DNA from: Candidatus Enterousia sp. | GTDB taxonomy: Bacteria; Pseudomonadota; Alphaproteobacteria; Rs-D84 | Assembly (NCBI GenBank): GCA_045654485.1 | Contig: JAZONN010000023.1 | Coordinates: 23,305 to 87,304 of the forward strand | Direction: 5' to 3' | DNA: 64,000 nucleotides | In this document: piece after piece, positions 60,361 through 62,974 of the stretch | Layout: every line of letters starts with the position of its first letter | How positions within the stretch are numbered: the stretch's first letter is position 1 | The notes under the pieces: generated by a model | The model's database searches: none | Told to the model about the DNA's origin: nothing | What the model saw: only the letters and a program-made list of their open reading frames with translations | Translations under genes and position numbers: made by a program

Positions 60361-60861
60361 ATGAATAAGATGAAAATGCCGGATTTAAGTCGTGCAGAAA
60401 TAGAAAATTTGTTGGATGCGCCATATGGTATGGTGTTGGCATATGATTTTAGAACAAATACTTTAAATCGTTCAAGTTATGCGGGTTATGCAGTATCGTC
60501 AAAGGAATTGTCAGATTATGCACCGGCGTTTAAACGTGATTTAGAATCTATGATTGATTTTGGTGGTCGTAAGGTTGTTGTTGCAGCGGTACAGGGTGTG
60601 CCAAATGTTTCTTGGAACGGAAAAAATCAATTTGTTAAATATCCATTGAATGAAGAAACATCACAATGGGTTGTGGGGAATGTTATCGCATATAACCCAA
60701 AGACCGGATTGTATGAAGCAAATCCAAAAGGATGGATGGGATTTGAAGTAAAACCGGTTGTTAATGAAGATAAATATGTTGCATTAAAACGCTTTATGTT
60801 CCGTATGTGGGCGCATGAACGTGAACGTCAAGCATTCGTTGCACCGTTTAAAACAAAATAA
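60361..60861 (+). CDS. Hypothetical protein, paralogue 1 of a four-gene tandem family
   Basis: 166 aa; shares …Y(D/N)F…N…Y(L/A)GY… core with three downstream ORFs. Confidence 0.5.
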   Translation: MNKMKMPDLSRAEIENLLDAPYGMVLAYDFRTNTLNRSSYAGYAVSSKELSDYAPAFKRDLESMIDFGGRKVVVAAVQGVPNVSWNGKNQFVKYPLNEETSQWVVGNVIAYNPKTGLYEANPKGWMGFEVKPVVNEDKYVALKRFMFRMWAHERERQAFVAPFKTK

Positions 60862-60887
60862 AATATCCCCGTTTGGGGATTTTTTTG
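60862..60887 (+). terminator. Intrinsic terminator
   Basis: atcccc-gttt-ggggat + T6. Confidence 0.55.
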
Positions 60888-60939
60888 TTGACAAATAAAA
60901 AATATACACTATATTGTTTTTGTCAACAAATGGATAGTT

Positions 60940-61551
60940 ATGTCTGATAAAGTATATTATTGTAGCCAAGCCGAGTATAACGAACTGCAACAAGAGTTGC
61001 GGCGTATTCAGCATTTGATAAAAATTGCCGTTGTTCGTGATGGTGCGTCTGTATCATCTGTTTCGCCGATGACGGATGAGTCCATAATGTTATTGTTTGG
61101 CAACCATTATAGTTCAATTATGTATTATAATTTTGATTTAAATGTAATGGGAATGGGGACGCATTGGCAGAAAAAAAGTGCCGCCGAAGGTGGTTTGGGG
61201 TGGCGTGATGTGTATATGACACATAAAATTCCATTGGCAGAATATCAGATGTTAAAAAGTGCCAGTAAAAATAATAAGTTTTTATTGCCGGATGAAGAAG
61301 TTGCGGCATGGGTTGTTGTTCCAGTGACGGCGGCGACGTATGAAACGGCAAAATTAGTTAATCCAAATAATGTATTCAAGCGTGCTAGTTTAATAAGCAA
61401 ACATGTGTTTGGCTGTTATGTTTTGCGTAATTCTAAGACAGGTGATTTGCGGCGTGCGCCTTGGATAAAGTGTCCGTACAATCGTGATGTTTTCGCAAGT
61501 GATTGTTTGATGGATGCGTTAATGTGGGGGGTAAAAAACGTCTCGCGTTAA
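60940..61551 (+). CDS. Hypothetical protein, paralogue 2 (motif IMYYNFDLNVMGMG; C-terminal CPYNRD…DC)
   Basis: 203 aa. Confidence 0.5.
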   Translation: MSDKVYYCSQAEYNELQQELRRIQHLIKIAVVRDGASVSSVSPMTDESIMLLFGNHYSSIMYYNFDLNVMGMGTHWQKKSAAEGGLGWRDVYMTHKIPLAEYQMLKSASKNNKFLLPDEEVAAWVVVPVTAATYETAKLVNPNNVFKRASLISKHVFGCYVLRNSKTGDLRRAPWIKCPYNRDVFASDCLMDALMWGVKNVSR

Positions 61552-61623
61552 TTAATTGGGATTGTAGGGGTGCTGTATTTAGCAGTACAGAGAGAATGTA
61601 ACAACAAAAAAGAGGAAAGTGAT

Positions 61624-61947
61624 ATGAAAAAATGTTTGATTGTTGGTTTGTGTGCTGCTATGGTATTTGGCCCTGCGACGGCGGCGGTTAAATATACGGA
61701 AACAGAAACAGTTGTGACTGTGGAACGTATTTATGCAAACCGTGGTTGCTGTGCAAAGCGCTTTGCGTCAAGTAAGGATGTGCGTCCATGCGAACGTAAA
61801 GTAGAAAATCCTGTACGTGTTAAAACGCATACAGAAGTGATTGATCATTATCAGGTTTTTCAACCGGTGACTGTTTATCGTCCGATGGGGACACAAATTG
61901 AACGTCGTGTTGTGCCGGTAAAAAACTGTAACAAATGTGGATTTTAA
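61624..61947 (+). CDS. Small secreted protein with Cys pairs (…GCCAK…C…NCNKCGF)
   Basis: signal peptide MKKCLIVGLCAAMVFGPATAA; agaggaaag RBS. Confidence 0.45.
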   Translation: MKKCLIVGLCAAMVFGPATAAVKYTETETVVTVERIYANRGCCAKRFASSKDVRPCERKVENPVRVKTHTEVIDHYQVFQPVTVYRPMGTQIERRVVPVKNCNKCGF

Positions 61948-61950
61948 GAG

Positions 61951-62457
61951 ATGAATAAAACAAAAAAAGAAATTTTGACAGATGCAAAAGTGGCAGAGTT
62001 GCTGAAAGTTGCAAGTACTAATGCCGTGATGTATTATAATTTTGATAGCAATCGTTGGAATACATCGCATTATTTGGGGTACGATGTTTGGTGGCAAGGT
62101 GTGGACAATGATGTTGCCAATGATTTTAAGGCCTTGTTCGAAAAAGAACCTGAATTTGCCGATGTAGAATTGGCGGCTTGTATGATTATGGCGACAAATT
62201 ATAAATATTTGGCCAAAGGTATGCGCTTGCATAAACCGGTGTACAGCCCGACCGCCAAAGGCGTTGTGTTCAATGTTATTCGTCGTGATAAGCAGAGTGG
62301 TCGCATTTTGCCTGTGTCCGATGTTTGGATTGGTGGTGATAAATACGCAAACCAATGGATGGCGGTTCAGTTTGGTGTAAATGATTGTATGAACTATAAA
62401 GAATATCAGCGCAGAATGCGTGCGGCTTTGTTGACAGAGTATGGTCGTACAAAATAA
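61951..62457 (+). CDS. Hypothetical protein, paralogue 3 (VMYYNFDSNRWNTSHYLGYDVW)
   Basis: 168 aa; close to paralogue 4. Confidence 0.5.
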   Translation: MNKTKKEILTDAKVAELLKVASTNAVMYYNFDSNRWNTSHYLGYDVWWQGVDNDVANDFKALFEKEPEFADVELAACMIMATNYKYLAKGMRLHKPVYSPTAKGVVFNVIRRDKQSGRILPVSDVWIGGDKYANQWMAVQFGVNDCMNYKEYQRRMRAALLTEYGRTK

Positions 62458-62473
62458 ATCGGTTGGTGTTGTT

Positions 62474-62974
62474 ATGGCTAAAAAAACGGAAGTTTTAACC
62501 GATGAAAAAATGAGATCCTTGTTCGGTGCAGGTTATAATAATGTTATTTATTATAATTTTGACACCGATGCATGGAATCGCAAAGATTATTTAGGGCATT
62601 TTGTGCCACGTGCCGATATGTCGGCACCAGATAGTTGGGCAAAATTGGCCAAAGAAGTTGTTGAACGTGAATACCCAAATATAGAATTGGTTGCCTGTAT
62701 CATGATGATGGTTGATAGTGCGGACTATAAGCATTTGGGGCAAATTATTAATAATCCACGTTTTGATGCAGATGGTGTGGCTTTGGCTGGAAATGTGTTG
62801 TATCGCAAGCGTCGTAGTCATAAAATTATGCCGGTTTGTCAGAGTTGGATTTGTTCCGGGCATTCGATATATCCAGAACGTGCCGCAAGTAATGTTGGTG
62901 ATTTTATGTATCGTTTGGGGCATAATGCGGCATTTCGTCATACGTTGTTGGATATAAAGGTTCGTGGTAAATAA
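62474..62974 (+). CDS. Hypothetical protein, paralogue 4 (VIYYNFDTDAWNRKDYLGHFV)
   Basis: about 166 aa from ATG 62474. Confidence 0.5.
   Translation: MAKKTEVLTDEKMRSLFGAGYNNVIYYNFDTDAWNRKDYLGHFVPRADMSAPDSWAKLAKEVVEREYPNIELVACIMMMVDSADYKHLGQIINNPRFDADGVALAGNVLYRKRRSHKIMPVCQSWICSGHSIYPERAASNVGDFMYRLGHNAAFRHTLLDIKVRGK

Follow-up and report, generated by a model that had tools for sequence, protein, structure and literature searches.

A bacterial rpoA gene normally follows rpsM and rpsK within the alpha operon, whose gene order is rpsM-rpsK-(rpsD)-rpoA-rplQ. Diverged tandem paralogues that encode small cytoplasmic proteins are familiar from the SUKH and Imm arrays of immunity proteins, and symbionts with reduced genomes are known to carry expanded protein families, such as the effector families of Rickettsiales, Bartonella and phytoplasmas. 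In this study we analyze a 64,000-nucleotide (nt) stretch of a Candidatus Enterousia sp. contig (referred to as a whole as the window), in which a cassette on the + strand at 60361-62974 holds four copies, P1 to P4, of a single protein family together with the gene for a 107-amino-acid (aa) protein, S107, all immediately upstream of rpoA. To judge from alignments, profiles and substitution rates, the four genes are statistically supported paralogues, anciently diverged and vertically inherited under purifying selection. They belong to a previously undescribed family, restricted to one lineage and present in multiple copies, of basic, cytoplasmic proteins of the alpha/beta type.

The genes of the cassette and its two neighbors are arranged as follows.

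59682-60239, + strand: carD (Pfam CarD), the upstream neighbor of the cassette.
60361-60861, + strand: P1, 166 aa, of the P1-type subfamily with the motif NPKTGLYE.NP.GW.G, predicted to be monocistronic.
60940-61551, + strand: P2, 203 aa, a P domain preceded by a ~40-aa N-terminal strand-helix extension, the most divergent copy.
61624-61947, + strand: S107, 107 aa, with a signal-like N-terminus and a C-terminal CxxC.
61951-62457, + strand: P3, 168 aa, of the core subfamily.
62474-62974, + strand: P4, 166 aa, of the core subfamily, or 177 aa if translated from another start further upstream, at 62441.
63083-64000 and on past the window end, + strand: rpoA (Pfam RNA_pol_A_bac, RNA_pol_L and RNA_pol_A_CTD), 99% identical in relatives.

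Pairwise BLASTP relates P3 to P4 at an E-value of 3e-20, P1 to P3 at 1e-9, P2 to P4 at 6e-9, P1 to P4 at 3e-6 and P2 to P3 at 4e-3, the P1-P2 pair alone being not significant (0.14), and a family hidden Markov model (HMM) built from independent database relatives matches every copy (P1 3e-48, P2 2e-27, P3 6e-51, P4 1e-54). The copies have no N-terminal hydrophobic or transmembrane segment and are, as predicted from this, cytoplasmic. An initial annotation of this DNA had described four diverged paralogues of an uncharacterised cytoplasmic family, with P3 and P4 as the most similar pair, a small exported cysteine protein between P2 and P3, and carD and a detached rpoA on the two sides. The alignments, the signal-like N-terminus of S107 and the Pfam matches bear out all of this, and the paralogy did not fail on alignment statistics, as had been allowed for. 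The same annotation ranked P1 as the most divergent copy, which we find to be mistaken, because P2 is at least as divergent (92 bits to the family HMM versus 160 for P1). It was partly right about the shared motifs: YYNFD is common to all four copies (as AYDF in P1), but the ELxAC(I/M)(I/M)M block, read there as EL(A/V)AC(I/M)(I/M)M and as general, is restricted to P3 and P4. At the DNA level even P3 and P4 resemble each other only in short in-register stretches at the motifs, with 73% identity, which indicates that the duplications are old and have not been homogenised by gene conversion. The orthologues of P4 begin at the position of the ATG at 62474 (MSKNTE..), which gives the 166-aa form.

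A word-indexed search recovered only 19 clusters, orthologues of P1, P2 and P4. An exhaustive HMM search over 1.84 billion cluster representatives yielded 221 proteins at E <= 1e-3, of which 133 reach E <= 1e-10, and the lengths are mostly 160-230 aa; a scan of JGI metagenomes gave just 3 loci. Every named or titled source of these relatives is a metagenome-assembled genome (MAG) of a gut member of the Alphaproteobacteria or Pseudomonadota, in which the product name is 'hypothetical protein'. Cassettes that are identical or nearly so are found on gut-metagenome contigs and in MAGs that bear the title Candidatus Enterousia sp. or Alphaproteobacteria bacterium; the samples came from human and other guts, from the rectum of sheep and buffalo and from the caecum of yak. 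Scanning P1-P4 and S107 against Pfam, NCBIfam, PHROGs and PADLOC gave nothing significant (the best PHROGs match has an E-value of 0.1, and PADLOC gave none), a Pfam scan of 25 P relatives gave no match, and a profile search of PDB sequences returned only a chance match to L20 (E 1.6). The possibility that the family is a known housekeeping domain of unknown function, also raised in the initial annotation, finds no match in Pfam or NCBIfam.

The P domain that defines the family is ~165 aa long. Its conserved columns are largely aromatic or hydrophobic, and the invariant residues of the core subfamily are a single Asp, a single Trp and a single Arg. In the P1 subfamily, which bears the distinct signature noted above, the Trp and the Arg have been replaced. 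No conserved constellation of catalytic type is present in the family. An N-terminal extension of ~40 aa, with the pattern Y-x-L-T-Q-x-D-Y-D-x-L...I-Q-x-I-L...A-x-V-V, occurs in ~77 of the 166 collected members, including P2 and the rpoA-adjacent copies of other genomes. In a few relatives (P0027, P0053 and P0058) two P domains are joined in one protein, and in another (P0137) the P domain is fused with a transmembrane segment and with a long tail of low complexity, which would be extracytoplasmic. The proteins are basic, with a median isoelectric point (pI) of 9.2 for the family and 8.9-9.3 for P1-P4. Their ends are also conserved: the last residue is K or R in 83 of 89 full-length members (93%), as against 31% of 127 control open reading frames (ORFs) from the same genomes, and position -3 is K, R or H in 68 of the 89 versus 25% of the controls, so that the conserved terminus can be written [K/R/H]-x-[K/R]-COOH.

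The arrangement around the cassette is itself conserved. The order PFOR, a lipoprotein-like gene, a secreted 180-aa protein, carD, P1, P2, S107, P3, P4, rpoA and rplQ recurs in three further relatives (L007/L008, L009 and L032), with protein identities to the window of 94-99% for PFOR, CarD and RpoA, 84-88% for S107 and 54-92% for P1-P4; the P1 orthologue, for example, is 84% identical in L008 and 67% in L009. The ratio of nonsynonymous to synonymous substitution rates (dN/dS) is 0.10-0.29 for P1-P4 (0.10-0.23 for P1, ~0.20 for P2, 0.12-0.22 for P3 and 0.20-0.29 for P4) and 0.08-0.13 for S107, compared with 0.01-0.05 for the housekeeping neighbors rpoA, carD and PFOR, the synonymous sites being near saturation between the cassette-bearing species (dS 0.3-2.6). 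These values indicate that the P genes are functional and constrained, although considerably less so than the core genes. The G+C content (GC) of the cassette and its GC at third codon positions (GC3) lie inside the native range.

In a neighbor-joining tree each of P1-P4 groups with its own orthologues, and all four duplications are accordingly older than these speciations. The core subfamily takes in P3, P4 and the copies that are linked to rpoA in other genomes, P2 forms a long branch, and the P1 subfamily is separate. In the relatives L010-L012 a lone P1-type gene, downstream of smpB, is flanked by an ompA-like gene and marR; the window retains this ompA-like gene (45737-47470), with no P gene next to it. 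The serial local duplication suggested in the initial annotation holds only in part: the four copies are older than the divergence of the three sequenced relatives, and the P1 subfamily occurs at this other locus.

An AlphaFold2 model of P3, built from a 20-sequence alignment, is confident (pLDDT 83.5, pTM 0.81) and has the order helix, strand, small hairpin, helix, four strands and two C-terminal helices. Foldseek found no significant match to it in PDB or BFVD. The weak PDB matches are mostly hotdog-fold proteins, with E-values of 0.2-1.4, TM-scores below 0.25 and root-mean-square deviations of 12-15 A. The strand-helix-strand x4 order predicted for the P family resembles the order of that fold (4HBT/FatA/PaaI/LnmK proteins), but the P family is without a Pfam 4HBT match or catalytic residues and has two extra C-terminal helices. 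A diverged rpsD was also weighed as the identity of the gene in the slot between rpsK and rpoA, and rejected, there being no S4/Ribosomal_S4 match in Pfam and the predicted core being a beta-sheet with flanking helices.

The position of the cassette is best understood from relatives in which the ribosomal protein cluster is intact. Two of these, more distant from the window (L023 and L029), retain the ...secY-rpsM-rpsK cluster, and between rpsK and rpoA they carry, respectively, a P gene (P0024) followed by an S107-like gene, and a P gene (P0169) followed by a 631-aa repeat protein, an S107-like gene and a 56-aa ORF. Both of these P genes bear the N-terminal extension. In a third relative (L035) the slot holds an S107-like gene and two secreted proteins and no P gene. 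As an observation of its own, the 631-aa protein (L029 10749-12644) consists of ~23-residue repeats (LFAGI.GAP...MF..TF..C..L.G.IP) that are leucine-rich-repeat-like and have no Pfam family on record. Long hairpins follow rpsK in L023 and L029, a promoter-like TTGACT-17-TA(T/G)AAT is common to the rpoA genes of six lineages, and an invariant leader, TTGG(T/C)GAAAATGATAAACTAAGC, precedes rpoA in six divergent lineages; the leader belongs to no Rfam family, and covariation gave no support for a structure in it. Taken together, the promoter, the leader and the hairpins suggest that rpoA-rplQ is a unit of its own and that the space between rpsK and rpoA is an operon boundary at which lineage-specific genes gather. 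In the window no rpsM, rpsK or secY is present in the 63 kb upstream of rpoA, from which it would follow that the island here has expanded and become detached from rpsK, with carD now upstream. The position that the initial annotation called unusual is thus real, but it is explained by a conserved island before rpoA in the relatives in which rpsK and rpoA are still linked, and by a promoter of rpoA's own.

The following signals were located around the cassette genes.

60242-60271, + strand: intrinsic terminator 3' of carD, a 13-bp stem followed by a T run, which parts carD from the cassette.
60865-60880, + strand: hairpin terminator 3' of P1, kept in four genomes.
60884-60930, + strand: 21-nt inverted repeat around the P2 promoter, 86% complementary.
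60888-60915, + strand: predicted P2 promoter, TTGACA-16-TATATT, with 11/12 consensus matches.
62979-63007, + strand: predicted rpoA promoter, TTGACT-17-TAAAAT.
63044-63066, + strand: rpoA leader TTGGTGAAAATGATAAACTAAGC, invariant in six lineages.

These predicted signals would define four units: the terminator after carD, P1 ending in a terminator of its own, P2 under a near-consensus promoter, and S107-P3-P4. P3 starts 3 nt past the stop codon of S107, a packing tight enough to suggest that S107, P3 and P4 form one operon. The spacer between P1 and P2 (60862-60939) is 92% identical across four genomes despite a dS of ~1 in the flanking genes, and the P1 terminator shows a compensatory change in L009. 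The inverted repeat, TTGTTGACAAA...TTTGTCAACAA, straddles the P2 promoter and may be an operator for some regulator; elsewhere in the window similar repeats are no more frequent than expected by chance, and there is none upstream of family genes at 8 other loci. An Rfam search found no tRNA or other Rfam element in the cassette region.

S107 is unrelated to P1-P4 and much better conserved than the P family, with 148 homologous clusters. It has a near-invariant core, PVRVKTHTEVIDHYQVYQPVTVY, two conserved His residues, one conserved internal Cys and the C-terminal CxxC. Of the cysteine pairs claimed for it in the initial annotation the C-terminal one is indeed conserved, but in all only three of the five cysteines are. 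Orthologues lie upstream of rpoA in L023, L029 and L035 and elsewhere in L037 and L040; linkage with P genes is frequent but not universal. The AlphaFold2 model of S107 is unconfident (pLDDT 55), and the protein may need a partner or a metal in order to fold.

Other members of the P family are scattered among a variety of neighbors: tatA, dksA and trx (L015), rbfA and lepA (L017), ssb and rho (L020), secA and dnaE with a giant orphan protein (L026), and PFOR (L033). In one genome they form a tandem pair beside peptidase U32 (L014), and in another they occupy both flanks of a 1227-aa secreted orphan (L039). A separate observation concerns L014, in which two adjoining ORFs of ~155 aa at 1802-2867 have a common N-terminus, MLLV(F/Y)..Y.QE.K.FN.LA.KI.KSKK, and form a small tandem paralogue pair of their own; these were tried as cryptic members of the P family and rejected (hhalign probability <1%).

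The account that we prefer, while putting it forward as a tentative one, is that the P proteins are lineage-specific, non-enzymatic intracellular binding or adaptor modules with paralogue-specific partners, probably acting in pairs. Each paralogue would be specialised for a partner of its own. The conserved surface would consist of the YYNFD...W hairpin together with the Arg that is invariant in the core subfamily, and the basic C-terminal tail would serve as a docking peptide. Pairing is made probable by the existence of two-P-domain fusions and by the adjacency of P3 and P4 in an apparent operon with S107. The island at the rpsK-rpoA operon boundary would collect genes for large secreted proteins along with S107 and P-domain genes; in the lineage of the window it would have grown to five genes, and a rearrangement would have put carD in the upstream place of rpsK.

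The strongest rival explanation, in our view an unlikely one, is that an obligate symbiont exports the P proteins as effectors or host-interaction factors. They would be recognised by their positively charged C-terminus and not by a signal peptide at the N-terminus, like the substrates that other host-associated alphaproteobacteria send through a type IV secretion system (T4SS) of the VirB/D4 type. The lineage invites this thought: Enterousia, of the uncultured order Rs-D84, has genomes of ~0.75-1.0 Mb without the tricarboxylic acid (TCA) cycle and respiration, and is predicted to live as an obligate symbiont or parasite (PMC12306168). The P family is confined to this lineage, expanded, and evolving 5-20 times faster than its housekeeping neighbors; the proteins are basic, and the K or R at their C-terminus in 93% of members, the richness of the island and of other contexts in secreted or surface proteins, and the member with a transmembrane segment and long extracytoplasmic tail would all fit export. 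Against this, no secretion apparatus was seen in the stretches of genomic DNA examined, nor is one reported in PMC12306168; the terminal basic motif, dipeptide-like, is far weaker than a demonstrated signal; and synteny beside core genes with dN/dS of 0.1-0.3 fits intracellular proteins equally well. A bolder form of the same idea, which we regard as improbable, combines a new fold for the P domain with signal-peptide-independent export of the family, as effectors or adaptors, through [K/R/H]-x-[K/R]-COOH, and makes the rpsK-rpoA island an 'interaction locus' with S107 and large surface proteins. Were it true, the Rs-D84 gut alphaproteobacteria would manipulate through the P proteins the cells they depend on.

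The P proteins could instead bind nucleic acid or the transcription and translation machinery as lineage-specific regulators or accessory factors, with members that carry the extension, such as P2, binding DNA and regulating themselves through the palindrome at the P2 promoter. We consider this quite unlikely. Its attraction lies in the basic pI, in the copy conserved between rpsK and rpoA, in the other neighbors (carD, dksA, ssb/rho, rbfA/lepA and smpB), in the high conservation of the inverted repeat over the P2 promoter and in the strand-helix extension of about half of the family. A genome of <1 Mb, however, puts most genes near information-processing genes by chance, and rpoA and the rpsK operon are predicted to be transcriptionally separate from the island. 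No match to a helix-turn-helix (HTH) or ribbon-helix-helix (RHH) family was found, the palindrome is not repeated at the other family loci mentioned above, and several fast-evolving paralogues would be atypical for subunits of a core machinery.

The initial annotation took the array for an immunity or anti-defence cassette, an interpretation that the data do not support. That the proteins are (possibly orphan) immunity proteins against polymorphic toxins is highly improbable, even though they share with the SUKH/Imm tandem arrays a small size, a cytoplasmic alpha/beta character, a non-enzymatic look with no catalytic residues, and diverged tandem paralogues that evolve faster than their neighbors. 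In ~12 independent contexts, in which we scored carD, rpoA, rpsK, smpB, the ompA-like gene, marR, dksA, ssb, rbfA, secA, PFOR, peptidase U32 and the orphan secreted proteins as neighbors, no toxin, secretion-apparatus, integrase, phage or mobile-element gene is adjacent, and neither is any Rhs gene, contact-dependent inhibition (CDI) gene or type VI secretion system (T6SS) gene. No Imm/SUKH match was found in Pfam and no similar structure in PDB by Foldseek, so that neither linkage to a toxin nor sequence or fold places the family among the described immunity families. Unlike those arrays, moreover, the P genes keep stable orthologous positions by vertical inheritance under purifying selection, encode basic rather than acidic proteins, and occur as lone single copies scattered among core genes.

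Except for being an array of small unknown proteins, the cassette has nothing of anti-defence or other mobile-element cargo inserted beside rpoA, a reading we find barely credible, as no relatives were found in IMG/VR viral contigs (single-protein and alignment scans) or in INPHARED phages and PLSDB plasmids (tblastn), PHROGs and PADLOC assign it to no phage or defence family, its composition is native, no integrase, tRNA or repeats flank it, and it has been held in place across species at the dS given above.

The window contains further lineage-specific genes that we record alongside the cassette. Between PFOR and carD lie two lineage-specific exported proteins (58504-58950 and 59024-59566), both, like S107, with a strong signal-like N-terminus, syntenic at 77-81% identity and without a Pfam match. 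The first is lipoprotein-like, 143-148 aa long, with a lipobox-like LCVAAC and a weak PHROG match (phrog_3135, 6.5e-5), and the second is Cys-rich and 180 aa long. A 1238-aa secreted orphan at 10088-13804 (+) is 48% identical to the 1227-aa protein of L039. A second orphan paralogous family is found at 15100-17460 (-), 17901-20198 (+), 20221-22704 (+) and 38262-41348 (+); its proteins are 765-1028 aa long, have signal peptides and no Pfam match, and are homologous to ~930-aa proteins that follow rplQ in L007, L023 and L029. From 54000 to 64000 the GC skew stays strongly positive throughout, at 0.2-0.37, and almost every gene is encoded by the + strand, consistent with a leading-strand segment of a replichore.

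Several things follow from this locus. Rs-D84, including Enterousia, comprises widespread uncultured gut organisms with genomes of <1 Mb, and at least four paralogues of one family are seldom kept in so small a genome unless they matter; absence from all the curated libraries searched, together with a confident model that has no detectable fold relative, makes the family a concrete handle on lineage-specific biology. For this order a separately promoted rpoA and a conserved rpsK-rpoA island are now apparent. A more general caution is that tandem arrays of small proteins are not always immunity or anti-defence cassettes.

Set beside the alpha operon, the island of the relatives resembles an operon segment in that its genes occupy the interval from rpsK to rpoA and share their orientation, and differs in that rpoA has its own conserved promoter and leader and hairpins follow rpsK, so that the island may lie outside that operon; in the window, likewise, predicted terminators after carD and P1 and predicted promoters for P2 and rpoA speak against co-transcription with rpsK and rpoA. 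The P family differs from the effector families of symbionts in having no demonstrated link to a secretion system, eukaryote-like domain or mobile unit, and its export is hypothetical. The resemblance to the families of reduced-genome symbionts at large is closer, as the P family too occurs in one host-associated lineage, keeps several paralogues, evolves faster than the core and has secreted-protein neighbors. The P family is far from any described family, while expanded families specific to one lineage are already known from symbionts with reduced genomes.

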